Source: Acidimicrobiia bacterium (lineage in GTDB: Bacteria > Actinomycetota > Acidimicrobiia > Spongiisociales > UBA11373). From it: DNA of 62,106 nt. The DNA lies in the NCBI GenBank assembly GCA_033722675.1, contig JAWVYO010000002.1, positions 1-62,106 of the forward strand, given 5' to 3'. The translations under genes were made by a program, and so were the position numbers. The notes under the pieces are model-generated. The model searched no databases, was not told where the DNA came from, and worked only from the letters and a program-made list of their open reading frames with translations. Below are positions 6,249 through 59,119 of this stretch, one piece after another (the first letter of the stretch is position 1; each line of letters begins with the position of its first letter).

Positions 6249-6704
6249 GTGCGGGTCGTCGTCCAGCGCGTCGCCGGGGCCGCCGTGGCGGTCGACGGCG
6301 ATCGGGTGGGCTCGATCGACACGGGCCTGCTCGCGCTCCTCGGCGTCGCCGACGGCGACGGTCCCGACGACGTCGACGTGCTCGTGGACAAGCTCGTCGG
6401 CCTGCGGGTCTTTCCCGACGACGAGGGCCGGATGAACCGGTCGGTCGCCGATGCCGGCGGCTCCGTGCTGCTCGTCAGCCAGTTCACGCTCCTCGCCGAC
6501 GTCCGCAGGGGGCGGCGACCGTCGTTCACCGGTGCTGCCGACCCCGCCGTGGCCGAGCCGCTCGTCGACCGGGCGGCGGAGCGGATCCGGGCGGCGGGGG
6601 TGCCGTGCGCCACCGGGACGTTCGGCGCCGCCATGGAGGTGTCGCTCGTGAACGACGGACCGGTCACGATCGTCCTCGACGTCGTCGGCGGCCGGGTGCG
6701 CTAG
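6249..6704 (+). CDS. dtd: D-aminoacyl-tRNA deacylase
   Basis: MRVVVQRV...GLLALLGV...LLVSQFTL...RRGRRPSF...VSLVNDGPVT matches the Dtd consensus along its full length. Confidence 0.9.
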   Translation: MRVVVQRVAGAAVAVDGDRVGSIDTGLLALLGVADGDGPDDVDVLVDKLVGLRVFPDDEGRMNRSVADAGGSVLLVSQFTLLADVRRGRRPSFTGAADPAVAEPLVDRAAERIRAAGVPCATGTFGAAMEVSLVNDGPVTIVLDVVGGRVR

Positions 6705-9700
6705 CGGGGCGAGCGGCCGGTCGCCTCCAGCCAGGCGCTTCCGGGCTCGCAGAACCTGGTGAAGTCGCAGGTGCGGCACGCCTCCGATGGCTCCGGGTCG
6801 TACTGCTCGTCGCGGGCGGCGGCGACGAGGCGTGCGAGGTCGTCACGGGCGGCGGCGAGCCACGCTTCGTCGACGTCGGTCCCCACCTCGGTGAGGCCGT
6901 CGCCCAGGTAGACGAAGGCGACCCGGACGGAGGACGGCGGCTCGGGCGAGAACGCGGCGTCGTCGACCGCCACCGCGTACGCCTGGAGCTGGACGCGCTG
7001 GGGACCGTCGTCGCGGGCCCGGCCGCTCTTGAAGTCGACGACCTCCCATCGGCCGGGCGACGGCTCGTAGACCGCGTCGATCCGTCCGCTCACCCGGGCG
7101 TCGGCCACCGCCAGTTCGAAGGGTGCCTCCACGAGGATCGGGCGGTCCTCGGCGAACCGCGATGCGGAGAAGGACGCGAACGCCGACACCCCCTCGCCGG
7201 TGGTCGGCCGATCCGGGACGTCGTAGAAGTCCTCGGTGGCCTCGTCGAGGGCCATCGAGCCGCGGTTGTGGAGCTCGATGCGCCGGTGGAGTTCGATGCC
7301 CCTGCGCATCGCCGGGGACGGCCGCCGCGGGAGTCGGTCGACCTCGCTCCAGAAGAACCGCCGCGGACAGGTCGCGTAGGTGACGAGGCCGGTGACCGAG
7401 GTCCGGAAGCCGTCGTCTCCGTCGTCGACGGTGGGGACCGTCGGGAGATCGTCGAGCGTCATGCGGAGCTGGTCCATGCGCGCATCGTATGCGTCGGTGA
7501 CGTCGAGCTCTCCGGCGAGACGGCGGGGCTCGTCGGGCCGTTCGAGGGTCGCGCCGAGCACGCGGCGCCAGCCCCCGGGTATCGGGTCGGGTGAGGGCAC
7601 GTCGCCGGCGACGATGCCCGGCCGGGATGGCGGATCGCCGGCATCCTCGACCCAGACTTCGACGGAGGCGGCCGGCTGGTCGCGACCCACGAGGTGGAGG
7701 TCGCTCGGCGGTTTCGGCTGTTTCTCGGAGTACCAGTGCGCCGAGGTGGCGACGAGGAGCGACTTGGCGCGGGTCACGGCGACGTAGGCGGTGCGCCACT
7801 CCTGGGCGTCGCGGGCGCGGCGGTAGTGGTCGGTGCGTGCCGAGCCGGCCTCGGCCGGTGGCGCCTCGATCCACCGGGCGTCGAGCCGGAGCTCGTGGGG
7901 CACGTGATCGGCGCGGCGGTCGGGGTCGGGCAGGGCACCGGTGGTGGAGGGAAAGATCCCGCGGGCCAGGGCGGGGAGCACGACGACGGGCCATTCCAGG
8001 CCCTTCGCCCGGTGCACGGTGAGGAGTCCGACGGCGTCCTCGCCACCCACCGACGCCGTGTCGAGCTCGTTGGCGGCGTCGTCGTCCTCGAGGACCTCCA
8101 GGTGGTCGAGGAACGCCTCGAGGGTCGGGGTCCCGGTGAGGGGGCTCCACGCCTCGGCCAGATCGAGGAACCGGTACAGGTTGAGACGGGTCGAGAGCCG
8201 GTGGGCGTCGGCGAGGGCCTCGACCTCCAGCCACGCATCGGTCTCGTCGAGGATCGTGCGGCAGAGCTCGGCCAGCCCCATGCTGTGGGCGGCCGTCAGG
8301 AGTCGCCGGTACCGGTCGCGGAACCGCTCGAGGCGTCGCCGGGCCTCCGGCTCGAGCTCGGGCAGGTCCTCCAGGCGGTCCACCGCCTCGAGGATCGCCG
8401 CCCCCACGCCCTCGGTGTCGTCCCGTGACGCCCGACGGTGACGCCGCACCCACGCGGAGACGGGGACGAGGTCGCCGAGACCGAGCCGGTAGGTGGAGCC
8501 GAGGGCGAGCCGGGCGAAGGCGGGGGCGTCGTCGGGCCGGCCGAGCACGCGGAGCCAGGCGTGGAGGTCGGCGACCTCTGGGATCTGGAGAAGCCCTCCG
8601 AGGGCGGCGACCTCGACGGGCACGTCGCGGCGCTCCAGCGCCTCGCGGACCGTGGCGATCTGGCCGTGGCGGCGGAAGAGGATCCCGATGTCGCGCCATG
8701 CGACGTCCTCCTCGTCGTGGAGCCGCACGATCCGTTCGGCGATCCACTCCGCCTCGTCGAGGTCCGTACGGAGCCGGGCGACCTCGATCCTGCCCGGCGG
8801 CGCGGCGGGGTCGGGACGCAGCTGGTCGACACCCCCCGCGCCGATCCGGGACCGCACCGCCTCGGCGTAGGCGACGATGGCCGAGCCCGACCGGCGGTTC
8901 ACCGACAGCGCCCGGTCGCCGGCCGGCGTGCCGTCGCGCTTCGGGAAGTGCTCGCCGAAGCGTGCGAAGTTGGCGAGCGATGCCCCCCGCCACTCGTAGA
9001 TGGTCTGATCGGGGTCGCCCACCGCCGTCACGGAGGAGCCCGAGCCGAAGAGGACGCGCAGGAGCTCGCGCTGTGCCGGATTGGTGTCCTGGTACTCGTC
9101 GAGGAGGACGACGCGGTAGCGGCCGGCGATCCGGCGAGCGATCGGCGGATGCTCGACGAGGAGGCGGTGGGCGAGGAGCACGAGGTCGCCGTAGTCGACG
9201 AGTCCGAGTTCCCGCTTGCGGCGCTCGTAGGCAGCGAGCGCCGTCGCCAGCTCGCGTCGGGCGGGGGCGGCGCCTGCGGTGTCGTCGTGGTCGAGGAGGG
9301 CCGAGGCGTCGAGCAGGTGGTCGGCCAGGCGGGTGGAGAGGGCTGCGAGGTCGCCGATGCGTTGGGGGCGGGCGGTCAGGTCGAGGTGGACGCGCGGCTC
9401 CGCTCCCAGCGCCTCCGAGAGCAGCTGACGGGCGGAGCCGGTGGAGACGACCGGGGTGTCGCGTCGAACGCCGACGAGGGCGCCGTACTCGCGGAGGATC
9501 GCGTGGGCGAAGCCGTGATACGTGAGGACCTCGACCTGGCGTCCCGCTTCGGCGAGGTCGGGGAGGCGGTCCCGGAGGCGGTCTGCCAGTTCCTCGGCCG
9601 CCTTGTTGGTGAAGGTGATGCCCAGCGCCTGCTCCGGCTCGACACCGTCGCGAACGAGCCGTTCGAGACGAGCGGCCATCGTGGTGGTCTTGCCGGTGCC

Positions 9701-9778
9701 GGCGCCGGCGACGACCCGCAGGGGCTCGTCGGCCGCGTGGTCGACGACCGCCGCCTGTTCGGTGCTCGGAAAGCTCAT
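6701..9778 (-). CDS. adnB: UvrD-like helicase / RecB-type Fe-S nuclease subunit (AdnB-like)
   Basis: MSFPSTEQAAVV...VVAGAGTGKTTTM Walker A, VVLLDEYQDTNP, and a C-terminal PD-(D/E)XK domain with Cys cluster CPRRFF...CRTCDFTRFC. The ATG at 9776-9778 overlaps the upstream stop (ATGA). The longer ORF to 10582 is an Arg-rich shadow. Confidence 0.8.
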   Translation of the reverse strand: MSFPSTEQAAVVDHAADEPLRVVAGAGTGKTTTMAARLERLVRDGVEPEQALGITFTNKAAEELADRLRDRLPDLAEAGRQVEVLTYHGFAHAILREYGALVGVRRDTPVVSTGSARQLLSEALGAEPRVHLDLTARPQRIGDLAALSTRLADHLLDASALLDHDDTAGAAPARRELATALAAYERRKRELGLVDYGDLVLLAHRLLVEHPPIARRIAGRYRVVLLDEYQDTNPAQRELLRVLFGSGSSVTAVGDPDQTIYEWRGASLANFARFGEHFPKRDGTPAGDRALSVNRRSGSAIVAYAEAVRSRIGAGGVDQLRPDPAAPPGRIEVARLRTDLDEAEWIAERIVRLHDEEDVAWRDIGILFRRHGQIATVREALERRDVPVEVAALGGLLQIPEVADLHAWLRVLGRPDDAPAFARLALGSTYRLGLGDLVPVSAWVRRHRRASRDDTEGVGAAILEAVDRLEDLPELEPEARRRLERFRDRYRRLLTAAHSMGLAELCRTILDETDAWLEVEALADAHRLSTRLNLYRFLDLAEAWSPLTGTPTLEAFLDHLEVLEDDDAANELDTASVGGEDAVGLLTVHRAKGLEWPVVVLPALARGIFPSTTGALPDPDRRADHVPHELRLDARWIEAPPAEAGSARTDHYRRARDAQEWRTAYVAVTRAKSLLVATSAHWYSEKQPKPPSDLHLVGRDQPAASVEVWVEDAGDPPSRPGIVAGDVPSPDPIPGGWRRVLGATLERPDEPRRLAGELDVTDAYDARMDQLRMTLDDLPTVPTVDDGDDGFRTSVTGLVTYATCPRRFFWSEVDRLPRRPSPAMRRGIELHRRIELHNRGSMALDEATEDFYDVPDRPTTGEGVSAFASFSASRFAEDRPILVEAPFELAVADARVSGRIDAVYEPSPGRWEVVDFKSGRARDDGPQRVQLQAYAVAVDDAAFSPEPPSSVRVAFVYLGDGLTEVGTDVDEAWLAAARDDLARLVAAARDEQYDPEPSEACRTCDFTRFCEPGSAWLEATGRSPR

Positions 9779-12738
9779 CGGTCGTACGCCTCCCGCCCCG
9801 CCGGCCATGCCGGGCAGACCAGTTTCACGGAGCATCGATCGCACGCCGCCGAGGGCGTGGCGGGCCACCGTTCGGCGGCGATGCCAGCGGCGGCGGCGTC
9901 GAGGGACGCCAGGACGTCGTCGAGACGATCCAGGTCGAACTCCCTCGTGGCGACGCCGGACTTGAGCAGCTTCGCCGGGTACCAGAAGGACGCCGCCGTG
10001 ACCGGTCGTCCGGTGTGGTTCGCGGCGGCGAGCGCGTAGAAGCCGAGCTGGAGCGAACCGGCGGCGTCGGCGAGGGTCGCCGGACTCCGGCTCGTCTTGT
10101 AGTCGACGACGCCGACCCCGCCGTCGGCCTCCTCGATGCGGTCCACCCGCCCCCGCCACCGGACCCCATTCCGTTCGAGCTCCACGGGAAGCTCGACGGT
10201 CAGTCCGGGGCCGGACCCCGGCCAATGCTCGTAGAGGTTCGTGAGGATGCCCGCGGCGCGCTCGTGCCAGGCCGCCGCCCACGCGCCACCTCCGAAGGTC
10301 CCCGGCTCGAACCGTTCGTCCAACAGGGCGAGTGCGTCCTCGAGGCGACCGTGGTCGCGACCGGCGGCGATCGCCTCGCCCTCCACCGTCTCGAGCACCT
10401 CGTGGACGAGGGACCCGAGCGCGGCATGGGGCCCGGCGCCGTCGTCGACGAGGAGCCGACGCTCGAGGGCATAGCGGCGGGGGCACGTCGCGTAGGCCTC
10501 CGCCTGGCTGGGGGAGAGCTCCAGGATGCCGGGCACCAGTCCGTCGTCGGCGCCCCGGGGCAGCACGCCGGCCACGGCCCACGGCGGCCGCGGGCGCCAG
10601 GGCTCGTCGGAGCCGAGGACGGCGATGGCGGCGAGCCGTCGGGCGACCGGCTCACCGGGGTCTCGGGCGATGGCGAGCAGCCAGGCCTCGGCCTCGCGCG
10701 GTGTGACCGGCTCTCGATCGACCGCCGGCGCGCCGAGGTCGCCGTCGGGGTCGAGCATCGAGAGGAAGCGACTCGGCGTCCCGGCGCCGGTCTCGTTCGC
10801 CGTGGAGGTGCAGGTCCACACGACCCGGCTCCGGGCGCGACACATGGCGGTGTAGGCGAGGCGCATCTCCTCCTGGAGTCGGAAGGACGCCCAGGCGGCG
10901 GGATCCGCGGGCCGGTCGGACCCGAGCTGACGGACCTGCAGGAGCGTTTCGCGACGTCGCAGGTCGGGGAACACCCCGTCGACCGCGTCGGCGATCACGA
11001 CCACGTCGAACTCCCGGCCCTTGGCCTGGTGGAGGCTCGTGAGGGTGAGCCGGTCCTCGTCGGGGGCGCGGAACTCGAGCAACGGCGTGGCCTCGAAGTC
11101 GTCCTCCTCCGACCAGCGGAGGTAGTCCGCGAGCGTGGTCGAAGGGTCCCGTTCCCGGAGCCGGCCGAGCACCTGCGACAGCGATGCCCAGGCACGGCGC
11201 ATGTCGGCGTCCCTGCGGGCGGCGGGGACGATCTCGGGGAGCGTCGACCAGACGTGCCAGAAGCCGTCCGCGGCGGGACGGCCGGTGGCCCAGCCGCCGT
11301 CGGCGACGATCGCCGCCAGCTCGGGATGACCGGCCGATTCGAGGATCTCGGCCCACGCAGCGCCCGCCGCCCGGGCACGTTCGAGGTCCCGGACCGACCC
11401 GAGGGCCAGCCCCACGAGGGGTCCGAGCAGCAGCCGACGGATCGCCCGCTCCGCCTCCGGCCCTGCGAGGGAGGCGGCCCGGACGAGGTCGAAGAGGATC
11501 CGGGCGGCCGGATGGTCGACGAGGCGTCGGTCGGGCTGGTCGTGGGCGATCCGCCGCCGGTCGAGCGCCCGGGACAGCTCGGGGAGCAGCCGTCGCTTCG
11601 AGCGGACGAGCACCGCCATCCGTGCGTAGGGGATGCGGTCGCGGCGGTGGATCCGCTCGAGCTCGCCGGCGATCCATTCGGCCTCGTGGCTCTGCTGGTC
11701 GAAGCGGTAGGTCTCGACCGCCGCGGACCCCGGCGCCGGCACCACCGGGCCCGCCGCCCCCGGAAGGTCGCCACCGGCGGTGACCCGCACCGCGGCGTCG
11801 AGGATGGCGGCGGGCACCCGGAAGGACGTGGTGAGCACGATGCGACGCCCCGGGGTGCCGTCGGGAGCCGCGAACTGGTGGGGGAAGCGGGCGACGTTGT
11901 CGAGCGCCGCACCCCGGAAGCTGAAGATGGACTGGTAGGGATCTCCGGCGGCCGTCAGATTGCGGTGCCCGGCCGTGAGCCGGTCCAACAGGGCGGCCTG
12001 CGCGACCGTCGTGTCCTGGAACTCGTCCACGAGCACGTACCGGAACCGATCGGTCACCGATCCCGCGGCGCCGGGCTCGTCGAGGAGCATCACCGCGGTG
12101 GACTGGAGCGTCCCGTAGTCGATGCGGTTGCGCGTTCGCAGTTCGGCCTCATAGCGCTCGAGGAAGGCCGCGAGGCCATCCCAGTCGTCGCGGGCGGCGG
12201 CGCGACGTTCCAGTTCGTCGGGATCGACGAGGTGCTCGCGGCATCGGAGGAGGAAGTCGGCGACCTCGTCCGCGAAGGCGGGGGACCCGAGCAGGCCTCG
12301 GAAGGCGAGCGGCCAGCGGTCGGGCTGCTCGGTGGCCAGCAGGTCCCCGACGAGCGCCACCTGTTCCGGACCGGTGAGCAGCGTCGGGGGGCGGGCGGGT
12401 GAGGCGCCCGGGAGCCGATCGGCGCGGGCCTCCACGATCCGCATCGCCAGGGAATGGAACGTCAGGGCCGGGATGCCGGAGGTGGTGCGGTCCAGCCGGT
12501 GCGACAGGCGCGTGCGCAGGTCGGCGACGGTGCGGCGGGAGAAGGAGACCAGGAGGAGCTCATCGGGTTCGGCGGCGCCGGATTCGACGATGTGGGCGGC
12601 GCGGCGAACGAGGAACTCGGTCTTGCCCGCACCCGGCCCGGCCACGACGAGCTGGGGTCCGTCGACGTCGGCGAGGACCGGCTTCCAATCGGGTGGATCC
12701 ACCCGGATCTCGGGCACTGGAGGTGTGGTGGTGGGCAC
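9775..12738 (-). CDS. adnA: UvrD-like helicase / RecB-type Fe-S nuclease subunit (AdnA-like)
   Basis: VVAGPGAGKTEFL Walker A, VLVDEFQDTT, and a C-terminal nuclease with CPRRYALE...CDRCSVKLVC. It is first in a two-gene operon, as in mycobacterial adnAB. Confidence 0.8.
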   Translation of the reverse strand: MPTTTPPVPEIRVDPPDWKPVLADVDGPQLVVAGPGAGKTEFLVRRAAHIVESGAAEPDELLLVSFSRRTVADLRTRLSHRLDRTTSGIPALTFHSLAMRIVEARADRLPGASPARPPTLLTGPEQVALVGDLLATEQPDRWPLAFRGLLGSPAFADEVADFLLRCREHLVDPDELERRAAARDDWDGLAAFLERYEAELRTRNRIDYGTLQSTAVMLLDEPGAAGSVTDRFRYVLVDEFQDTTVAQAALLDRLTAGHRNLTAAGDPYQSIFSFRGAALDNVARFPHQFAAPDGTPGRRIVLTTSFRVPAAILDAAVRVTAGGDLPGAAGPVVPAPGSAAVETYRFDQQSHEAEWIAGELERIHRRDRIPYARMAVLVRSKRRLLPELSRALDRRRIAHDQPDRRLVDHPAARILFDLVRAASLAGPEAERAIRRLLLGPLVGLALGSVRDLERARAAGAAWAEILESAGHPELAAIVADGGWATGRPAADGFWHVWSTLPEIVPAARRDADMRRAWASLSQVLGRLRERDPSTTLADYLRWSEEDDFEATPLLEFRAPDEDRLTLTSLHQAKGREFDVVVIADAVDGVFPDLRRRETLLQVRQLGSDRPADPAAWASFRLQEEMRLAYTAMCRARSRVVWTCTSTANETGAGTPSRFLSMLDPDGDLGAPAVDREPVTPREAEAWLLAIARDPGEPVARRLAAIAVLGSDEPWRPRPPWAVAGVLPRGADDGLVPGILELSPSQAEAYATCPRRYALERRLLVDDGAGPHAALGSLVHEVLETVEGEAIAAGRDHGRLEDALALLDERFEPGTFGGGAWAAAWHERAAGILTNLYEHWPGSGPGLTVELPVELERNGVRWRGRVDRIEEADGGVGVVDYKTSRSPATLADAAGSLQLGFYALAAANHTGRPVTAASFWYPAKLLKSGVATREFDLDRLDDVLASLDAAAAGIAAERWPATPSAACDRCSVKLVCPAWPAGREAYDR

Positions 12739-12834: not shown

Positions 12835-14124
12835 ATGTCGAACGACCACGAGATCCTGGGCGACGGCCTGCGCGAGTGGGAGTCGCCCCTCTATCGGGAA
12901 GCCCTCCGGCAATTCGACCGGGTGGCCGAGCGGATCGGCCTCGACGACAACGTGGCCGAGCGGCTGCGGGTGCCGCAGCGGGCGATCGTCGTCACCTTCC
13001 CGTTCCGCCACGACGAGTACTCCGAGGTCGAGAGCGTGTTCGGGTACCGGGTGCAGCACGTGCTCACCATGGGGCCGACGAAGGGCGGGATCCGATACGC
13101 CGGCGACGTGAACCTCGGCGAGGTGGCGGCGCTCGCCATGCTCATGACGTGGAAGTGCGCGATCGTCGGCCTCCCCTTCGGCGGCGCCAAGGGCGGCGTC
13201 CGTATCGACCCGACCCGCCTCTCGCGGGCCGAGAAACAGCGGGTGACGCGCCGCTTCACGTCGGAGATCATCAACTTCATCGGTCCCGACACCGACATCC
13301 CCGCCCCCGACATGGGGACCGACGCCCAGACGATGGCGTGGATCATGGACACGTACAGCCAGCAGGTCGGGCACTCCGAGCCCGCCGTGGTCACCGGCAA
13401 GCCCCCCGAGCTCGGCGGCTCGGTGGCCCGGCGCGAGGCGACCGGGCGGGGCCTCATGACGCTGCTCGGACCCGCCTGCCAGGAGGTCGGCCTCGACGTG
13501 GAGGGCGCCACCGTGGCGGTGCACGGCTTCGGGAACGTCGGCCAGTACGCGGCCCTCGCCGCCGCCGAGCAGGGAGCGGTCGTCCAGGCGATCTCCGACA
13601 TCTCCGGCGTCGTCTTCGCGGGCGGCGGCGTGGACGTCAAGGAGGCGATGGCCCACGTCGAGCAGCACGGCTCGCTGGAGGGATACGAGGGCGGGGAGCG
13701 CCTCGACGGGGACGAGTTGTTCGGCCTCGACGTCGACGTGCTCGTCCCCGCGGCGATCGGCGGGGTGATCACCGAGGACAACGCCGACGACGTGCGGGCG
13801 AAGCTCGTCCTCGAGGGCGCCAACGGACCCACCACGGCGGCCGCCGACGACATCCTCGACGGCAACGGCGTGCTCGTCGTCCCCGACATCCTCGGCAACG
13901 CCGGCGGCGTGACCGTCTCGTACTTCGAGTGGGTGCAGGACCTCCAGAACTACTTCTGGAGCGAGGCGGAGATCGTCGGCCGGCTCCGGGAGATCATGAG
14001 CCGCGCCTTCACGGACGTGCTCGCCGTGGCGAAGGAGGAGGGCACGAGCCTCCGCACCGCGGCGCTCATCAAGGGCATCACGCGGGTGTCGGAGGCGAAG
14101 CTCGTCCGGGGGATCTTCCCCTAG
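12835..14124 (+). CDS. gdh: Glutamate dehydrogenase (Glu/Leu/Phe/Val dehydrogenase family)
   Basis: GPTKGGIRY, LPFGGAKGG and GFGNVG motifs. The ATG at 12835 is preceded by a GGGGCGAGGGGAAG SD-like tract. Confidence 0.9.
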   Translation: MSNDHEILGDGLREWESPLYREALRQFDRVAERIGLDDNVAERLRVPQRAIVVTFPFRHDEYSEVESVFGYRVQHVLTMGPTKGGIRYAGDVNLGEVAALAMLMTWKCAIVGLPFGGAKGGVRIDPTRLSRAEKQRVTRRFTSEIINFIGPDTDIPAPDMGTDAQTMAWIMDTYSQQVGHSEPAVVTGKPPELGGSVARREATGRGLMTLLGPACQEVGLDVEGATVAVHGFGNVGQYAALAAAEQGAVVQAISDISGVVFAGGGVDVKEAMAHVEQHGSLEGYEGGERLDGDELFGLDVDVLVPAAIGGVITEDNADDVRAKLVLEGANGPTTAAADDILDGNGVLVVPDILGNAGGVTVSYFEWVQDLQNYFWSEAEIVGRLREIMSRAFTDVLAVAKEEGTSLRTAALIKGITRVSEAKLVRGIFP

Positions 14125-14954
14125 GCGCTGGCGGCGGCCAGGCGCTCCTCGCCGGACGCCGCGAACGCCGGGCAGATGTCCTGGAAGGAGCACCAGTCGC
14201 AGAGGGGGCCCGTCCGGGGCGGGAAGCGGTCCTCCTCGATGGCCCGTTCGATGGCGCGCCACAGGGCCCGCAGCTGGCGGTCCATGGCGTCGAGCTGACC
14301 GTCCGTCACCGGGATCCGGTAGACGGTCGGACCGTTGAGGTAGATCAGCTGCACCTCGTCGGGCGTCCTGCCGAGACGCCGGCGGATGAGCAGGGCGTAG
14401 ATCTTCAGGGCGAAGAAGGCCGGCAGGGCGAACCGTTCCGGCGGCGCCTTCCCCGTCTTGTAGTCGGTGATGACGAGGCGCCCGTCGTCCGTCTCCTCCA
14501 TGCGATCGAGGATCCCGCGGACGACGATGCCGTCGAGGTCCTCGAGCATGTCGAGCTCCCGGTCGAGGGGGTCGAAGGCGCGCGGGTCCTCGATCGTGAA
14601 GTAGTTGGCCAGCAGCTCGAGGCTCTCCAGCCCCCACGCCCGCTCCTCCTCGACGTCGTCGAAGAGGTCCTCGTACTCCTCGAGCCGGACCTCGGACCAT
14701 GCCTCACGGAAGAGGTCGTACAGCGTCTCGGGCGTTCGGCGCTCGGCCGGCAGATCGAAGAGGCGCTGCAGGGCGAGGTGCGCCGTCGTGCCCCGGGCCT
14801 GGTAGACGGTGGTGGGCTCGGGGAGCCGGTCGATCGCCCGGAACTTGAAGAGCTGCGGGCACTGCTTGAAGTCGCTCGCCCGGCTCGGGGAGAGGCGTTC
14901 GAGCACGGGTGTGTCGGCAGCGGTTCCGGAGTCGGCAGCGGCGTTCTGATCCAT
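14121..14954 (-). CDS. RecB-family PD-(D/E)XK nuclease (Cas4-like fold, Fe-S cysteines)
   Basis: MDQNAA...SPSRASDFKQCPQLFKFRAI...ITDYKTGK...CDWCSFQDICP. The Cys1...Cys3 pattern is as in AddB/Cas4 nucleases. The ORF upstream of the ATG at 14954 is an Arg-rich shadow. Confidence 0.8.
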   Translation of the reverse strand: MDQNAAADSGTAADTPVLERLSPSRASDFKQCPQLFKFRAIDRLPEPTTVYQARGTTAHLALQRLFDLPAERRTPETLYDLFREAWSEVRLEEYEDLFDDVEEERAWGLESLELLANYFTIEDPRAFDPLDRELDMLEDLDGIVVRGILDRMEETDDGRLVITDYKTGKAPPERFALPAFFALKIYALLIRRRLGRTPDEVQLIYLNGPTVYRIPVTDGQLDAMDRQLRALWRAIERAIEEDRFPPRTGPLCDWCSFQDICPAFAASGEERLAAASA

Positions 14955-14992
14955 GTGGAGACCATACACCGGGGGAATGACACGCGTGGAAG

Positions 14993-16165
14993 TCAGGTCG
15001 TCGCGGCGGGCACGCGGCGCCACAGGTCCCGCTCCGCGACGGCGAAGAGCACCGAGCCCACGACCACCCATCCCGCAGCCGCCACGAACATGGCCGTGTA
15101 CCCGCCGAGGCCGATGATCAATCCGAGGAGGGGACTGCCGATCAGCGTGCCGACGTCGAACAGGCCCGTGAAGATCGACACCGCCGAGCCGAGTTCCGAC
15201 GGCCGGGAGCGTTCGACGATGAGGGCGTACGCGATGGGGAACAGGAAGGCGTGGCCGGCCCCGCAGAGCACGCCTGCGACCGCCACCGCGGTCATCGACG
15301 AGGCCGTCCCCAGGGCCAGGAAGCCGGCGGCGAACACGACGAGGGCCGGGTAGAGGATCGTCTTCTGTCCGTAGCGGTCGGGCAGCCAGCCCGCCGTGAC
15401 CCGCAGCCCGATGGCGGTCGCCGCGTAGGCGGCGAAGAACCCGCCGACCGAGCCGACGCCGGTCTGGTCGACGTACGTGCGAAGGAAGGCGAAATAGCCG
15501 GTCAGCGCCACCGAGAAGACGAGCGTGATCCACCACAGCGGCCGCAGCGATCGCCGCCGGAGGGCGGAGAAGAAGGAGGGGGACCCCTCGCCGTCGTCGA
15601 CGATGTCGACCGCCACGTCCCGGACCGGGAGCGAGAGCAGGAGCGACACGGTGGCGAACAGGGTGGCGGTGAGGAAGAGCTCGTCGTAGCCCCAGCGGGC
15701 GACGACGGTGTCCCCGATCACACCGCCGAGGGCGATCGGGAGCAGTCCGGAGACGCCGAAGAGGGCGAGCCCCTGTGTGCGCCGATCGGGGGGTACGTAG
15801 TCGGCGGCCAGCGTCGTGAGCGAGGTGAACAGCATGGCCACGGCGAGGCCGTGGACGATCCGAATGCCGTAGACGAGGGGCCCGATCGAACCGATGGCCA
15901 GGTAGGAGGCGACGATCGCGACGTTGAGGGCGTTGCCGGCCAGGACCACCGGTCGCCGTCCCCGCCGGTCCATGATCGAGCCGATCTTCGGCCGGGCCGC
16001 CACCGAGGCGATCGCCGTCGACCCGAAGATGACCCCGATCTCGAACTCCGAGGCCCCGAGTCGATCGAGGAATCCGGGGAAGTGCACGAAGAGGAAGAAC
16101 GCCATCCCCATGAAGAGATTGGCGAAGAAGACGAGCAGGAAGGGGCCCGTGAAGAGGCGTCGCAC
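14993..16165 (-). CDS. MFS transporter
   Basis: A 12-TM-like hydrophobic profile and an MFS loop motif (MDRRGRRP). GTG start at 16165. Confidence 0.85.
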   Translation of the reverse strand: MRRLFTGPFLLVFFANLFMGMAFFLFVHFPGFLDRLGASEFEIGVIFGSTAIASVAARPKIGSIMDRRGRRPVVLAGNALNVAIVASYLAIGSIGPLVYGIRIVHGLAVAMLFTSLTTLAADYVPPDRRTQGLALFGVSGLLPIALGGVIGDTVVARWGYDELFLTATLFATVSLLLSLPVRDVAVDIVDDGEGSPSFFSALRRRSLRPLWWITLVFSVALTGYFAFLRTYVDQTGVGSVGGFFAAYAATAIGLRVTAGWLPDRYGQKTILYPALVVFAAGFLALGTASSMTAVAVAGVLCGAGHAFLFPIAYALIVERSRPSELGSAVSIFTGLFDVGTLIGSPLLGLIIGLGGYTAMFVAAAGWVVVGSVLFAVAERDLWRRVPAATT

Positions 16166-16179
16166 CGGGTCAGCCTAGG

Positions 16180-16211
16180 GGTCGCGAAAAGCAATCAGCC
16201 GGTCGCGAAAA
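16180..16211 (+). promoter_or_regulatory. Pair of direct GGTCGCGAAAA motifs (candidate operator/UP-like element), unit 1
   Basis: Identical 11-mers at 16180-16190 and 16201-16211, spaced 21 bp start to start. The proximal copy starts 28 bp before the -35 hexamer. The same arrangement recurs at 16811-16841. Confidence 0.5.
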
Positions 16212-16228
16212 CCCGACAGCGGTCTCGC

Positions 16229-16258
16229 TTGACGCCTCGGTCGGGGCCCCCCTACGTT
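16229..16258 (+). promoter_or_regulatory. Candidate SigA-type promoter P1 (TTGACG-18-TACGTT)
   Basis: -35 at 16229-16234, -10 at 16253-16258, 18-nt spacer. It is homologous to the promoter at 16859-16887. Confidence 0.5.
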
Positions 16259-16264
16259 GTGACC

Positions 16265-16530
16265 ACTGCCTCCTCGGAGCCGCAAGGATCCGGAGAGGCG
16301 GCCCCGGCGGCGCTCCTTCGGGAGCAGGTCGGACGGGCCCCCGGGCTCGGACGACTGACGGCGGGGCCACACCCGGCGAACGGGCTTCGGCCCGATCGAC
16401 GGGGAGATCGGACCGATCTCACGACCGGTTCGATCGGCCCGCCGGCGGGCGTCCTTCGGGGCGACCGACGGTCGGGAAGAGGACCCCCGAGAGGGCGGAG
16501 GCTTCGGCCAAAGCTTTCTCGGGGGTTTCT
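16265..16530 (+). ncRNA. Candidate structured ncRNA, unit 1 (family unknown)
   Basis: Lies between promoter P1 and a hairpin with U-rich tail. UUCG-capped helices at 16313-16324, 16381-16394, 16450-16463 and 16500-16509, plus a 7-bp hairpin at 16404-16420. No ATG/GTG/TTG on the + strand from 16262 to 16544. Ends are approximate. Confidence 0.5.
16484..16530 (+). terminator. Hairpin plus U-rich tail (candidate intrinsic terminator of unit 1)
   Basis: CCCCCGAGA (16484-16492) pairs with UCUCGGGGG (16517-25), with an inner GGC-UUCG-GCC hairpin, followed by UUUCU. Confidence 0.5.
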
Positions 16531-16595
16531 CACGTCTCGAGGAGGTGGGCGTCGGGTACCGACCGACCACGGGTCGTTCCACCTGCCTCAACGCT

Positions 16596-16783
16596 CGGCG
16601 GCAGCACCCCGCAGCCCACGCATTTCGCGCCAGACCGACGTGACTCGGCCTGGGTGGGCCCCCGAGCGGAGCGGGGTGAGAATCGCAGCACCCGGCGGCA
16701 GCACCCGACACACCAGACCCGCGCGTCGGACCTGAGTGACTCGGCCTCCGTGGCCCGGAACGGCCCGAGCGGAGCGGGAAGCA
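16596..16783 (+). repeat. Two imperfect tandem direct repeats of ~97 nt
   Basis: Shared blocks are CGGCGGCAGCACCC (16596, 16693), GTGACTCGGCCT (16640, 16736) and CCCGAGCGGAGCGGG (16661, 16764). Confidence 0.6.
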
Positions 16784-16810
16784 GAGCCTCGGCGCAGGGG
16801 TGTGAGCGCA

Positions 16811-16858
16811 GAGCGCGAAAATTCTTCGGCGGTCGCGAAAACCGACCAGCGTTTTCGC
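16811..16858 (+). promoter_or_regulatory. Motif pair GAGCGCGAAAA / GGTCGCGAAAA plus inverted repeat GCGAAAAC-N8-GTTTTCGC, unit 2
   Basis: 11-mers at 16811-16821 and 16831-16841, spaced 20 bp. A perfect 8-bp inverted repeat at 16835-16858 abuts the -35. The proximal copy again starts 28 bp before the -35. Confidence 0.5.
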
Positions 16859-16887
16859 TTGCGACCTCGGGGTGCTGCCCATACATT
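16859..16887 (+). promoter_or_regulatory. Candidate SigA-type promoter P2 (TTGCGA-17-TACATT)
   Basis: -35 at 16859-16864 and -10 at 16882-16887. The flanks align with P1. Confidence 0.5.
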
Positions 16888-16893
16888 GGTCTC

Positions 16894-17219
16894 AGTCGCC
16901 CGGGAAACCGAGGCGGCGGCCTCGGAGCCGGAGACGGCTCTGGAGGCGGCCCGGCAGACGGCCCGAGAGGGACGTCGGGCCATCCGGGAGACCGGGTGGT
17001 CTGAAGCCCCGGCAACGGGGCCGACCAAAGGAGTCTTCGGGCTCCGGCGGCGAGTCGGGTCACCCAGGCGATGGACTTCGGTCCAGCGTCAGGGATCGGA
17101 GTGATCGCAAGGTCGCTTCGAGGCTCGGCGGGAGCCCGGCCCGAGAGGGTACGGACCGGCGAGCAGAGGAACCCCGAGAGGGTGGAGGCTTCGGCCGAGA
17201 CTCCCTCGGGGTTCTCTCG
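16894..17219 (+). ncRNA. Candidate structured ncRNA, unit 2 (paralogue of unit 1)
   Basis: Shares the 5' helix (16920-16946 vs 16272-16298) and the 3' module with unit 1. GCAA-capped 6-bp helix at 17006-17021. UUCG-capped helices at 17030-17045, 17073-17084 and 17187-17196. Ends are approximate. Confidence 0.5.
17170..17219 (+). terminator. Hairpin plus U/C-rich tail (candidate terminator of unit 2, possibly bidirectional with the convergent lipoprotein gene)
   Basis: AACCCCGAG (17170-78) pairs with CUCGGGGUU (17205-13), with an inner GGC-UUCG-GCC hairpin. It is nearly identical to the 16484-16530 module and lies 9 nt from the stop of the convergent gene at 17228. Confidence 0.5.
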
Positions 17220-17227
17220 CGTCCGGG

Positions 17228-17692
17228 TCAGCCCTGGACCTCGACGCGGGCGCCGGTGACGGCGACCTCACCGTCGGCCGTCATGGCCGGGCCGTCGATG
17301 GTGGTGTCCGGCGGGAAGAACTCGTACTCGCCGTTGCCGTTCACGTCGATGTGGGCCATGGGGAACACGAGGTCGGACGACTCGAGCGGCTGGTCGAGGG
17401 TCACGGCGACGTTGGACTGGGTGCCGGCGTCGAGGAGCTGGGAGTGGCCGATGACCGGACCGGGGCTCCCATCGGCGTTGCCGTGCACGGCGATGAAGCC
17501 GGGGGAGGGCAGGGTGATCGTGTCGACGACGATCGTCGTCCCGTCGGAGGTCTGTTCCTCGAACACGACCTCGGCCGGCGACATGACGACGGCGTCGCCG
17601 TCGTCGGCGGTGGTGGTCGTGGCGGCGTCGTCGTCGCCGCAGGCGGCGGCCACGAGGGCCAGGACGGCGAGCAGGGCGAACAGGCGTCTCAT
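17228..17692 (-). CDS. Secreted lipoprotein, function unknown
   Basis: MRRLFALLAVLALVAAAC signal peptide with lipobox, then a Thr/Asp-rich linker and a beta-rich domain. GAAGGAG SD 4 nt upstream of the ATG. Confidence 0.75.
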   Translation of the reverse strand: MRRLFALLAVLALVAAACGDDDAATTTTADDGDAVVMSPAEVVFEEQTSDGTTIVVDTITLPSPGFIAVHGNADGSPGPVIGHSQLLDAGTQSNVAVTLDQPLESSDLVFPMAHIDVNGNGEYEFFPPDTTIDGPAMTADGEVAVTGARVEVQG

Positions 17693-17772
17693 CGGTCTCC
17701 TTCGAAGGGGATCGTCGTGTCATTACCCGGGAGCACGCGATCGCAGACGGGCCGATGGGTAGGATCGACGAC

Positions 17773-18390
17773 ATGCGTTACCCCGAACACCTGCTGACCG
17801 ACGACGAGGAGGTCGTCCGGGCGTTCCGACCCCACTGGCGTCTGCTGTTCATCCCGGCGCTCTGGACGCTGCTGGGTATCGCGATCGTCGTGGCGACATG
17901 GATGTTCTGGCCGGAGGTCCCCGTCGTCGACTGGATCGTGACGGGCGTCGTGGTCGTCGCGGTGCTCCGGCTGGCGGTCTATCCGTTCGTCTCGTGGTTC
18001 TTCACCGAGTACATCCTCACGAACGAACGGCTGGTCCTCCGGAAGGGGATCCTGGCCCGCCGCGGTATCGAGATCCCCCTCGAGAACATCAACGACGTCC
18101 AGTTCTCGCAGAACATCATCGAGCGGATGCTGCATTCGGGGGACCTGCTCATCGAGTCGGCGGGCGAGCGGGGCCAGAGCCGGTTCGGCGACATCCCCGA
18201 GCCCGAGGAGTTCCAGAGCCTCATCTACCGGGTGCGGGAGGAGCGTTCCATGCAGCTCAGCGGCGGCGGCCGGGCCGTGGAACCCGACGGGACCGAGAAG
18301 CTCGAGCGTCTCGCGAAGCTCCTGAAGGACGGGATGATCAGCCAGGAGGAGTACGACCGGGCGAAGGCCCGGTTGCTCGACGAACTCTGA
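17773..18390 (+). CDS. Membrane bPH (YdbS/YdbT-like PH) domain protein with C-terminal SHOCT domain
   Basis: LTDDEEVVRAFRPHW followed by two TM helices and a PH-like core (GILARRGIEIPLENINDV). The C-terminal LAKLLKDGMISQEEYDRAKARLL is SHOCT-like. An alternative ATG lies at 17755. 17773 is preferred because TAGGAT-N7-ATG suggests a leaderless start. Confidence 0.8.
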   Translation: MRYPEHLLTDDEEVVRAFRPHWRLLFIPALWTLLGIAIVVATWMFWPEVPVVDWIVTGVVVVAVLRLAVYPFVSWFFTEYILTNERLVLRKGILARRGIEIPLENINDVQFSQNIIERMLHSGDLLIESAGERGQSRFGDIPEPEEFQSLIYRVREERSMQLSGGGRAVEPDGTEKLERLAKLLKDGMISQEEYDRAKARLLDEL

Positions 18391-21180: not shown

Positions 21181-21486
21181 GACCGTGCTCCCTTCCCGTC
21201 GTCGACGTGACGAACCACGGTTTCAGACCTTCGGGCCGTCGCACCAGGGGAGTTCGACCCTGATCCGACGTCGATGGGGTCCTTCGTCCCGATGTCACCG
21301 CAGTCGGGCGGTTGGCGGCGGCAGCGCCTCATGCTCCTGACGCACCGCGGCTCCACGCCGTTCGGCCCGGTGGACGCCGACCGGTCGCCGGCTGCATCCG
21401 TCCGCCGGACGTGGCCTGCTCCGCGACGCCGAGGGGCCCCGCCGACCGCCGTCGGTGCAGGGACCGCTTCGGTACCCTCCGCAGCG

Positions 21487-21960
21487 ATGCCCGCGCCAGA
21501 CACTCCCGCCATGAAGGCCATCGCGGCCACCGACGTGGCCTTCGAGGTGACCGTGCTCGATCCGCCGCCCCGTTCCCTCGAGGAGGCGGCCGAACGCGAG
21601 GGTGTCGAGCCGGCGTCCAAGGTGAAGACCCTCGTCGTGCGCCGCTCCGACGACGACTACGTCTTCGTCTTGGTGGGCGGTGGGCGGATCATCGACTGGC
21701 CGAAGCTCCGCGACCATCTCGGCGAGTCCCGGCTGTCGATGCCCGACGCCGACGACGCGCTGCGGATCACCGGCTATGCCCGCGGCACGATCACGGTCTT
21801 CGGGTCGAAGCGGACGCTCCCGGTCGTCGTGGACGAGGCGCTCGCCGGCCGGGCCGTCTCCATCGGCGGGGGTGCCCACGGGGTGGCCATCCACCTCGCC
21901 GCGGACGATCTGGTGGCCGTGACCGGCGCCGACGTCGCCGACGTGACCAAGGCCGGGTAG
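21487..21960 (+). CDS. YbaK/EbsC-type aminoacyl-tRNA editing domain protein
   Basis: KTLVVRRSDDDYVFVLVGGGRIIDWPKL...GYARGTITVFG...VVVDEAL...ISIGGGAHGV matches the YbaK/ProX fold pattern. Start is ATG 21487 or 21511. The ORF part upstream is Arg-rich shadow. Confidence 0.8.
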   Translation: MPAPDTPAMKAIAATDVAFEVTVLDPPPRSLEEAAEREGVEPASKVKTLVVRRSDDDYVFVLVGGGRIIDWPKLRDHLGESRLSMPDADDALRITGYARGTITVFGSKRTLPVVVDEALAGRAVSIGGGAHGVAIHLAADDLVAVTGADVADVTKAG

Positions 21961-56822: not shown

Positions 56823-57844
56823 ACGGTGACCTCCTCGGCGTCGTAGGCGGCGAACTTCTCCATGAGCTCGATGGCGCGGGCGGCGTACCCCCAGCCGTTG
56901 TCGAACCAGACGACGGCCTTCAGCATCGTCCCGTCCATCACGAGCGTGGCCAGCCCGTCGAAGATGGCCGAGTGGGTGTTACCGATGATGTCCGTCGAGA
57001 CGATGGGGTCGTCGGTGTACTCGACCACCGTGCTGTTCGACGCAGCCCATCGGACGGCGCCGTTGACGTCCGACTGGGTGACCTCGGTGTCGAGGATCGC
57101 CACGAGGTCGACGTTGGACCCGTCCGCGACCGGCACGTTGAGGGCGGATCCGCTGAGCTTGCCGGCCAGTGACGGCAGGACGTGCTCGATGATCTCCACC
57201 GAGTTCGTCGCCGTCGGGATGATGTTCTCCGCGGCGCTGCGGCTGTTGCGGAGGTCGTCACCCGGCACGTCGGCGAGCCGCTGCTCGTTCGTGAAGGCGT
57301 GGACCACCGTGTACATGACCGCGTCGATCCCGAAGCGGTCGTCGAGGATCTTGAGGATCGGTGCCAGCGCGTTCGACGTGTTCGACCCGAGGGCGATGAC
57401 CGAGTCGTGGGGATCGAGGGTGTGGTCGTTGACCCCCATCAGCAGCGTCGGGATCGTGTCGTCCTTCGGCGTGGACGCGAGGATCACCCGCCGGGCGCCC
57501 CGGTCGAGGTGGCCCTGGAGCTGATCCATCGTCCGGTGCTTGCGGGTGGCCTGGACGACGATGTCGACGCCCAGGCCGGCCCAGTCGACGTCGCCCGGGT
57601 CGGCGTGGTCGAGCATCGGGATGCGGCGGTCACCCACGACGAGGTGGCCGTTCTCGAGCTCGACCGGCTTCGGAAAGCGCCCGAACACGGTGTCGTACTT
57701 GAGGAGGTAGACGAGGGCGGCGGGGTCGGCGATGTCGACGATGGCCGCCACCTCGAGGTCGGGATGGTCCTCGAGCTGGCGGAACACATTGCGGCCGATC
57801 CGGCCGAACCCGAAGAGCCCCACGCGGGTGGGAGCGTGCGTCAT
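56819..57844 (-). CDS. GAPDH-like paralogue lacking the catalytic cysteine (probable pseudoenzyme)
   Basis: Full-length GAPDH fold (FGFGRIGR, VVHAFT, WFDNGWGYA). SNASCTTNC is replaced by ALGSNTSNA, TTTGAAKAV by TATNSVEII, and MRVP by LNVP. ATGA overlap with gap. Confidence 0.85.
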   Translation of the reverse strand: MTHAPTRVGLFGFGRIGRNVFRQLEDHPDLEVAAIVDIADPAALVYLLKYDTVFGRFPKPVELENGHLVVGDRRIPMLDHADPGDVDWAGLGVDIVVQATRKHRTMDQLQGHLDRGARRVILASTPKDDTIPTLLMGVNDHTLDPHDSVIALGSNTSNALAPILKILDDRFGIDAVMYTVVHAFTNEQRLADVPGDDLRNSRSAAENIIPTATNSVEIIEHVLPSLAGKLSGSALNVPVADGSNVDLVAILDTEVTQSDVNGAVRWAASNSTVVEYTDDPIVSTDIIGNTHSAIFDGLATLVMDGTMLKAVVWFDNGWGYAARAIELMEKFAAYDAEEVTV

Positions 57845-57976
57845 GGGTGGATGGTCCCCTTCGTTGGTGGTGCACCGTGCAGCCTATCGACTCCGTGGGC
57901 GCTGTTGGAACCGGTTCCGGTCCCGGCCGGCGGGGCCTGTCGGCGTGGCCGCCGACGCCTGATACCTTGCGGCTCC

Positions 57977-59119
57977 ATGACGTTCCCCGCCCCCGATCCG
58001 GAGTTCGCCGAGCGGTTGATCACCGGCCACGGCGACGTCGCCGGCCTCCTCGCCGAGGCGCGTCGGCTGCGCGACGAGGGACGGGGTCGCACGGTGACGT
58101 ACTCGCGCAAGGTCTTCGTCCCGCTCACGACGCTCTGTCGGGACACCTGCACGTACTGCACCTTCGCCAAGCCGCCGGGCGCCGGTGGCGAGTACCTCGA
58201 ACCCGAGGACGTCCGCTCGATCGTCGCGGCGGGCGACCGGCACCGCTGCACCGAGGCGCTGTTCACCCTCGGCGACCGTCCCGAGGCCCGCTGGCCCCAG
58301 GCACGGGCGTTCCTCGACGCCCACGGACACGCCTCCACGCTGGAGTACGTCGCGGCGATGTCGCAGCTCACCCTGGAGGAGACCGGCCTCTTCCCCCACG
58401 CCAACCCGGGACTCATGGACGACGCAGCGATGACGTTGCTCCGGCCCACGAACCCCTCGATGGGATTGATGCTCGAGAACGTCTCGCCCCGGCTCATGGA
58501 GCCGGGGATGCCGCATCACGGATGCCCCGACAAGGACCCGGTGCTGCGGATGGAGACGATCCGGGCGGCCGGGCGGGCCCGGGTGCCCTTCACCACCGGC
58601 ATCCTCGTGGGGATCGGAGAGACCCCTGCGGAGGTGATCGACAGCTTGTTCGCCCTCCGGGACGTGGCCACGGAGACGGGGGCGGTCCAGGAGGTCATCG
58701 TCCAGAACTTCCGGGCCAAGGCCGACACGCCCAAGCGCCGCGACGCCGAGCCGACCGTCCAGTACTTCGCCCGGATCGTCGCCGCGGCCCGGTGGATCCT
58801 CGGCCCCGAAACGAACCTCCAGGTGCCCCCGAACCTCACCGAGCGCTTCGAGGTCTACCTCGACGCAGGGATCAACGACTGGGGCGGTGTGTCGCCCCTG
58901 ACGATCGACTTCGTGAACCCCGAGGCCCCCTGGCCCCACCTCGACGAACTCCGGGCGCGTACCGAGGCCGCCGGCTTCCGCCTGCGGCCGCGGCTTCCGG
59001 TCTATCCGGAGTTCATCGCCGACGAGTGGATCGACGCCGGCCTGCTGCCCCGGTTGCGGGCCGCCGCCGACGCGGATGGATACGCTCTGGCTCCCCAACA
59101 GGAAGGCACCGCGGCGTGA
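57977..59119 (+). CDS. cofG: FO (7,8-didemethyl-8-hydroxy-5-deazariboflavin) synthase subunit CofG
   Basis: Radical-SAM CRDTCTYC cluster, with TVTYSRKVFVPLTTLC and VQEVIVQNF matching the CofG/FbiC N-half. ATG at 57977. Confidence 0.85.
   Translation: MTFPAPDPEFAERLITGHGDVAGLLAEARRLRDEGRGRTVTYSRKVFVPLTTLCRDTCTYCTFAKPPGAGGEYLEPEDVRSIVAAGDRHRCTEALFTLGDRPEARWPQARAFLDAHGHASTLEYVAAMSQLTLEETGLFPHANPGLMDDAAMTLLRPTNPSMGLMLENVSPRLMEPGMPHHGCPDKDPVLRMETIRAAGRARVPFTTGILVGIGETPAEVIDSLFALRDVATETGAVQEVIVQNFRAKADTPKRRDAEPTVQYFARIVAAARWILGPETNLQVPPNLTERFEVYLDAGINDWGGVSPLTIDFVNPEAPWPHLDELRARTEAAGFRLRPRLPVYPEFIADEWIDAGLLPRLRAAADADGYALAPQQEGTAA

Follow-up and report, generated by a model that had tools for sequence, protein, structure and literature searches.

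The gene-free island at positions 16166-17227 of the 62-kb stretch of Acidimicrobiia DNA analysed here (contig JAWVYO010000002.1; the whole stretch of 62,106 nt is called the window below) apparently holds two paralogous, independently promoted + strand genes of a previously unclassified, Acidimicrobiia-wide family of small RNAs (sRNAs). On the evidence of sequence comparison, the two units are very probably genuine sRNA genes belonging to a conserved family. The general features of an intrinsically terminated sRNA gene were found, i.e. a conserved promoter, covarying helices, a 3' hairpin and no coding signal, with transcription being predicted, and the family is a new one within a known kind, that of stand-alone structured or sibling sRNAs. 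A first-pass annotation of the island had proposed a duplicated, independently promoted, structured RNA of an undescribed class; the Rfam, conservation, covariation and coding checks reported here support that proposal. With respect to mechanism, action in trans by protein binding, either by sequestration or within a ribonucleoprotein (RNP), is put forward tentatively and with clearly less than even confidence, and the statement as a whole, i.e. sRNA genes together with a protein-binding mechanism, may be given a little under an even chance.

The island and its two units

The island lies between two - strand genes, encoding an MFS transporter on its left (14993-16165) and a DUF7282 lipoprotein on its right (17228-17692), and had been described as non-coding and free of open reading frames (ORFs). 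Consistent with this, codon-position GC periodicity, as followed with a sliding measure, is missing over 16126-17326, the sole long stretch of this kind in the window; the remaining apparent gaps, which first came from a crude ORF filter, proved to be coding on re-examination. ORFs crossing the island gave no Pfam match at E<=0.1; neither the periodicity measure nor Pfam thus reveals a coding signal, and a decayed or overlooked coding region was rejected because both codon periodicity and protein homology are lacking. ARAGORN identified no tRNA and no tmRNA in the island. The reported absence of ATG, GTG and TTG from the + strand of the RNA 1 region (16262-16544, 283 nt) was reproduced, with zero counted against ~8.9 expected from the base composition; unit 2 has four such start codons on the + strand. 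Two short stretches of the window, 21301-21601 and 57751-58051, likewise lack codon-position GC periodicity, the former falling inside a called tRNA_edit-domain gene (21274-21960).

The two units are homologous, as had been suggested: in pairwise alignment A1, segment 16166-16545 is 76% identical to segment 16796-17232, and the repeat families agree. Both are preceded by a pair of upstream repeats of the same type, the 11-mer GGTCGCGAAAA occurring in the window only at 16180, 16201 and 16831. In unit 1, two + strand copies of GGTCGCGAAAA (16180-16190 and 16201-16211) stand 21 bp apart, with the proximal CGCG 24 bp ahead of CTTGAC, and are followed by a putative + strand promoter consisting of a -35 hexamer TTGACG (16229-16234), an 18-nt spacer and a -10 hexamer TACGTT (16253-16258), the start being predicted near 16265. 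The + strand repeats of unit 2 (region 16811-16841) comprise CGCGAAAA at 16814-16821 and GGTCGCGAAAA at 16831-16841; the distal repeat, starting at 16811, is a degenerate copy, AGCGCGAAAA, the proximal one starts at 16831, and the repeat spacing is 20-21 bp in both units. The putative promoter of unit 2, also on the + strand, has -35 TTGCGA (16859-16864), a 17-nt spacer and -10 TACATT (16882-16887), with a start predicted near 16894. The SigA-like hexamers named in the first-pass annotation are therefore present in both units, at the coordinates given there, and they are backed by conservation in 143 homologous promoters.

RNA 1 (16265-16533, + strand, ~270 nt) and RNA 2 (16894-17220, + strand, ~325 nt), the ends of both being predicted, fold as chains of hairpins, which are capped by GCAA or UUCG in RNA 1 and, in the case of the approximately eleven hairpins of RNA 2, by GAAA, GAGA, GCAA or UUCG loops. 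The predicted minimum free energies (MFEs) are -174.4 kcal/mol for RNA 1 (z = -6.6) and -208.9 kcal/mol for RNA 2 (z = -6.5), every shuffled sequence being less stable. In both units the MFE structure is the same as the centroid structure, with local hairpins and no long-range closure. Folding of both units also reproduced the 5' helices, the UUCG- and GCAA-capped hairpins and the 3' modules described earlier; the accompanying claim that the 5' parts are homologous holds with respect to these helices, but unit 1 is without the first family hairpin, P1, which appears as a 19-nt gap in alignment A1. P1 of RNA 2 (GUCGCCCGGGAAACCGAGGCGGC, 16895-16917, + strand) is the conserved 5' GNRA hairpin of the family, and it covaries among the compact family members. 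A second conserved hairpin of RNA 2, CGGAG-UGAUC-GCAA-GGUCG-CUUCG (17097-17120, + strand), has 18 distinct family instances, across which the base of the CGGAG-stem-GNRA-stem-CUUCG arrangement is constant and the upper stem covaries; RNA 1 holds a degenerate copy at ~16409-16432. The nearest relative of unit 2 (locus L009) is 73% identical to it and retains the helices; apart from this, the RNA bodies diverge fast.

The 3' modules, which had been claimed to be near-identical, occur exactly twice in the window, against a chance expectation of 0. In RNA 1 (module 16475-16538, + strand) the outer stem pairs CCCCCGAGAGGG (16484-16495) with CUUUCUCGGGGG (16514-16525) and encloses a UUCG hairpin as well as an internal loop of the tandem purine-purine type; the tail UUUCUC is base-paired with a GA-rich run upstream of the hairpin. 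In RNA 2 (module 17162-17225, + strand) the outer stem is formed by 17172-17182 with 17201-17211, including one A.C opposition and one G.U pair; an extension stem pairs 17166-17171 with 17212-17218 around a bulged U, with CGCG (17218-21) after it. On the + strand, model R1 gives RNA 2 a score of 73.8 bits and RNA 1 one of 69.5 bits; the corresponding - strand scores are 35.6 and 27.8 bits. The U-rich tail ascribed to the modules is correct insofar as the 3' strand is U-rich, but this strand is not a free tail, being mostly paired with the upstream purine run.

A family across the Acidimicrobiia

Homologues were retrieved by exact-pattern scans built on the shared 3' module. A metagenome collection yielded 19 loci and species-representative genomes yielded at least 120, almost all of them from metagenome-assembled genomes (MAGs) of Acidimicrobiia or Actinomycetota, demonstrating conservation outside the source genome. 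The few outlying matches (Porphyromonas, Zixibacteria, Streptomyces) look like chance ones, with a different inner sequence. A phage origin was rejected, there being 0 family matches among 2.9 million viral contigs.

The DNA upstream of the matched loci follows the same gene plan throughout. The layout of the 143 distinct promoters is tCGCGAAAa, 20-21 bp, ggtCGCGAAAac, 24 bp, CTTGAC, 18-19 bp and TACnTT, the proximal CGCG lying 24 bp ahead of CTTGAC in 138 of them, and a promoter is present no more than 650 nt upstream of 135 of the 185 3' modules. When the double CGCGAA motif is taken as the starting point, 186 occurrences are found in ~1 Mb of fetched sequence, 163 of which are then followed by a module matching the strict regular expression; nearly all of the remainder precede variant family RNAs. 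At the other end of the genes, CGCG is located exactly 5 nt past the 3' hairpin in 114 of 185 distinct tails (window 17212-17223, also 16623-16629; loci L004-L142). Read as its reverse complement, ACGCGAGAAA, the tail repeats in inverted orientation the CGCGAAA motif that lies upstream of the promoter, and each RNA gene is therefore bracketed by one and the same motif. We know of no convincing match between the CGCGAAA repeats and the box consensus sequences of GlnR, PhoP or MtrA.

The predicted RNAs are 116-595 nt in length, falling into classes of ~145-170, 220-300, 310-450 and up to 595 nt, with the ends staying conserved. Many loci have two or three tandem genes and three loci (L033, L090 and L101) have five or six; the arrays at these three are partly recent segmental duplications, L090 repeating one unit pair ~950 nt apart. 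The RNAs are chains of 4 to ~15 local tetraloop hairpins, the compact members (~160 nt) having four, i.e. P1 at the 5' end with a GNRA loop (GGGGGCAACCCC type), P2 capped by GAGA or UUCG, P3, and P4, which is the 3' module. P3 of the compact members takes two forms, with either a conserved internal loop round a UUCG hairpin or a conserved 12-nt loop (GGGCCCGCUUUC). When the four-hairpin model was applied to 29 compact sequences, 88.8% of cells were standard-paired, compared with at most 56% when the pairing partners were slid, and none of 500 shuffles matched; compensatory change was observed in 35 of the 54 pairs. Overall, compensatory changes are clear both in the 3' module and in the helices of the compact members.

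The loops of the family are likewise distinctive. Among the 999 hairpin loops of 129 predicted family RNAs, 874 are tetraloops, mainly UUCG (325), GCAA (155), GAAA (126) and GAGA (94), and homologous loop positions carry GAGA in some RNAs and UUCG in others; ~71% of the nucleotides lie in base pairs. GNRA and UNCG loops account for 763 of these 999 loops on the + strand, versus 13 of 883 on the reverse complement. This asymmetry, together with the R1 bit scores, settles the + strand as the RNA strand, as judged from sequence and predicted folding.

The consensus of P4 was examined on 83 non-redundant sequences. Its outer stem has 11 bp, with an A.C opposition, an invariant G.U pair and a pair that covaries as U-A, C-G or U-G; in the interior, tandem purine-purine oppositions make up a 3x3 internal loop, and a 3-bp stem, which covaries, is capped by UUCG or GNRA. 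The extension of 5 bp, whose two strands are the GA-rich run and the U-rich tail and which has a bulged U, covaries between AU, GC and GU. In the 3' module 94.5% of cells are paired, versus at most 65% in slid controls, and 0 of 500 shuffles matched the observed covariation. The extra tandem copies, which are the only sample of outer-stem variation unbiased by the search pattern, have stem changes from C-G to U-A, from G-C to A-U and from A.C to A-U or G.U, with the helix always preserved. That a terminator-like stem should be sequence-fixed across a class is an unexplained point.

Mode of action and relation to known RNAs

At the gathering threshold, no Rfam 15 family matched anywhere in the window or in 17 homologous loci (134 kb), and at E<=10 there was only sub-threshold microRNA and sRNA noise on the terminator hairpins, such that the proposed novelty is not contradicted by any known family. 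No description of Acidimicrobiia sRNAs was found in the literature, where the module sequence gave unrelated matches only.

The proposed gene comprises a dedicated promoter with two helically phased CGCGAAA repeats, a 5' (or near-5') hairpin, a variable string of GC-rich hairpins and a near-invariant 3' stem-loop. Its RNA would be built for stability, with both ends locked in helices, the U-run paired and almost no single-stranded sequence, and may be highly abundant, in view of a promoter like those of stable RNAs, phased A-tract repeats upstream of a good -35 element, and tandem duplication that would raise dosage. Protein recognition would occur via the sequence-constrained 3' module, which combines a helix bearing A.C and G.U with a tandem purine-purine loop; scaffolding would be left to the variable hairpins. 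It is the location of the constraint in helices and internal loops, the exchangeable tetraloop caps and the features indicative of stability and dosage that point to protein recognition rather than to seed pairing.

Several points weigh against this proposal. A generic promoter and terminator scanner made no call on either unit, because the sites fall below or outside its E. coli-like consensus thresholds. The near-invariance of the outer stem is partly circular, in that the homologues were retrieved by a pattern derived from that stem, which builds some of the invariance in. Transcript ends and abundance are predictions, and nothing in the genes nearby (PDDEXK_1 nuclease, bPH_2+SHOCT, acyl-CoA ligase) points to RNA binding. 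Finally, the 12-nt loop GGGCCCGCUUUC, which is conserved in one of the compact subtypes, could act as a seed for base pairing.

That loop is one reason to consider that the RNAs are sibling base-pairing sRNAs, which would act by antisense via a short conserved seed, with the hairpins for stability only. As with Qrr1-5, LhrC1-5 and the csRNAs, nearly identical genes are present in several copies, every one with a promoter and terminator of its own; paralogues occur together at one locus, with more copies elsewhere, and the common dedicated promoter motif implies a single regulator, as is typical of siblings. The Qrr, LhrC and csRNA species are, however, short (~90-110 nt) with an exposed conserved seed, whereas the family RNAs span 116-595 nt, are mostly paired and have no single-stranded stretch conserved family-wide. 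Moreover, 76% of their loops are of the GNRA/UNCG type, i.e. poor pairing sites, with GAGA and UUCG exchanging at homologous positions, their strongest sequence conservation lies inside helices, and their bodies diverge fast. Seed-based antisense action is, on balance, rather unlikely.

CsrB and RsmX/Y/Z offer a precedent for a modular multi-hairpin build, having a variable number of modules, paralogues that are sometimes in tandem, an upstream activating sequence before a sigma-70-type promoter, and a terminator hairpin at the end. In Csr/Rsm RNAs, GGA motifs recur in the hairpin loops, where they are displayed to CsrA, but the family loops are GNRA and UUCG caps, with conservation residing in helices and internal loops, and there is no known or observed link to CsrA; membership of the CsrB/Rsm sponges was rejected, there being no GGA loop class among the 999 loops of the 129 RNAs. 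The family also resembles OLE RNA with OapA in placing a large structured RNA beside a gene that encodes a small membrane protein, in this case bPH_2+SHOCT; there is, however, no sequence or structural similarity to OLE RNA, the analysis gave no sign of a link between RNA and protein, and the bPH_2 neighbourhood may simply be conserved gene order. A broader form of the protein-binding proposal, i.e. that the family is a class-wide abundant RNP or decoy RNA without a described bacterial counterpart (a 6S/Ms1 substitute, or a sponge for a global RNA- or helix-binding protein) under a dedicated CGCGAAA-binding factor at both gene ends, is conceivable but unlikely.

The possibility that the family is the Acidimicrobiia counterpart of Ms1, which binds the RNA polymerase (RNAP) core, or of 6S, which binds the holoenzyme, i.e. 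a stationary-phase RNA that stores or inhibits RNAP, appears improbable. Ms1 is an abundant structured sRNA of ~230-300 nt from other Actinomycetota, which evolves fast and is traced by synteny, and the family shares several features with it: same phylum, same size range, a stand-alone single-gene unit with a sigma-A-like promoter and intrinsic terminator, and a fast-evolving sequence with kept genomic position. The Ms1 flanks listed in PMC9130861 include a 'PH domain-containing protein', and the family usually lies just upstream of bPH_2; this PH-domain link is shared by name only. A word-indexed search listed only bPH_2 relatives of at least 58% identity, those named being mostly Acidimicrobiia, and of the relatives from an exhaustive search down to 34% identity, the ten representatives checked were all uncultured, the only one with an organism name being Acidimicrobiales.

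The fold argues against such an assignment. A long hairpin that opens into a central bubble is the defining feature of both Ms1 and 6S (PMC4191392), whereas both units lack a 5'-3' closing helix and bubble, and 20 compact relatives likewise form local hairpins; the Streptomyces coelicolor Ms1 (scr3559) folds as a nested rod, and it has no visible sequence similarity to the units. The hallmark synteny of Ms1 (MTS2823 / scr3559) is with a HAD-IB hydrolase gene (MSMEG_6173 / SCO3558), which was not found as a flank; the flanks here are PDDEXK_1, glutamate dehydrogenase, bPH_2+SHOCT and AMP-binding genes, with no HAD gene within ~10 kb. Ms1 is usually single copy, in contrast with the tandem, PDDEXK_1/bPH_2-linked arrays of hairpin chains observed here, and no Rfam match was obtained although, according to the Ms1 paper, Rfam holds Ms1 candidates. 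Identity with Ms1 was consequently rejected on fold, synteny and sequence. The family is like 6S in being predicted to be stable, abundant and highly structured; 6S was rejected because there is no rod with closing stem and central bubble and no RF00013 match.

Genomic context bears on whether the units might instead be a cis-acting leader or attenuator that controls read-through into the downstream bPH_2+SHOCT and acyl-CoA ligase genes. In ~40-50 genomes the common order is a divergent PDDEXK_1 nuclease gene, the RNA gene(s), a gene for a bPH_2+SHOCT membrane protein and an acyl-CoA-ligase-like gene, with the bPH_2 start usually 20-200 nt past the last RNA terminator; in ~40 genomes the last RNA copy lies at this distance upstream of bPH_2 and is co-directional with it, as a leader would be. 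In most genomes, however, bPH_2 has its own TAnnnT box 6-8 nt ahead of the start codon, and the same holds in the window, where TAGGAT (17760-17765) lies 7 nt ahead of ATG 17773; the start of bPH_2+SHOCT (gene 17755-18390) is thus most likely ATG 17773 rather than 17755, as judged from the sequence. A box so close to the start codon implies that the bPH_2 mRNA is leaderless, and hence that the family RNA is not its leader. Further, each gene of a tandem array is framed by a promoter and a terminator of its own, in the window a convergent gene stands between the RNA and bPH_2, the RNA gene is divergent from bPH_2 in three genomes, and compact members occur at other loci beside unrelated genes (one MAG has copies on at least three contigs). 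In accord with these observations, the RNAs do not constitute the 5' untranslated part of a downstream mRNA, as would a riboswitch or leader. Control in cis is very improbable indeed; the first-pass annotation had reached the same conclusion, but its reason, that the next gene is convergent, is not the one that holds. Among most relatives, the gene that follows runs in the same direction as the RNA.

That the island is a DNA-level feature (a repeated regulatory region or palindromes resembling repetitive extragenic palindromic sequences) or a decayed coding region, with no RNA gene, has a negligible probability, since the presence of CGCGAAA on both sides of each unit (two direct copies upstream, one inverted downstream) and the breaking of metagenome assemblies within the island are outweighed by the strongly strand-asymmetric tetraloop bias, RNA-type compensation at G.U and A.C positions, the conserved order of promoter and terminator, and the lack of codon periodicity and protein homology.

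Soils, sediments, oceans and wastewater all harbour abundant Acidimicrobiia, which have barely been cultured. The occurrence of the family in well over 100 species-level genomes, in up to six tandem copies, with an invariant promoter layout and a sequence-constrained 3' element, suggests an RNA that matters for the cell and is not a niche regulator. The results provide handles for its study, including a covariance-model seed for annotation, a DNA motif leading toward the regulator and a 64-nt RNA bait leading toward the partner protein, and they indicate that class-spanning structured RNA families are still absent from Rfam for MAG-dominated lineages.

Spacer and neighbouring genes

The spacer between the two genes (16536-16812, ~270 nt) lies outside both RNAs. 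It contains a two-copy direct repeat of ~97-103 nt (16575-16682 and 16672-16785), with ~70% of aligned columns identical (alignment A3). On folding, the spacer had no more structure than shuffled sequence (z = +1.1 and -0.8); a third RNA or module at this position was rejected, there being no R1 match and no excess structure. Two contigs of the source metagenome end within the spacer repeat, L001 at 16715 and L003 at 16633.

The window retains the PDDEXK_1/RNA/bPH_2/acyl-CoA ligase order, except that the RNAs are flanked by the MFS gene on one side and by the DUF7282 gene on the other. Both genes (14993-16165 and 17228-17692) look like insertions into the ancestral order, and the MFS insertion is common to loci L015 and L016. 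On the - strand at 6701-12738 there is a UvrD-helicase/PDDEXK gene pair (AdnA/AdnB-like), next to which are a glutamate dehydrogenase gene and then the stand-alone PDDEXK_1 gene (14121-15023), which overlaps the MFS gene by 31 nt.

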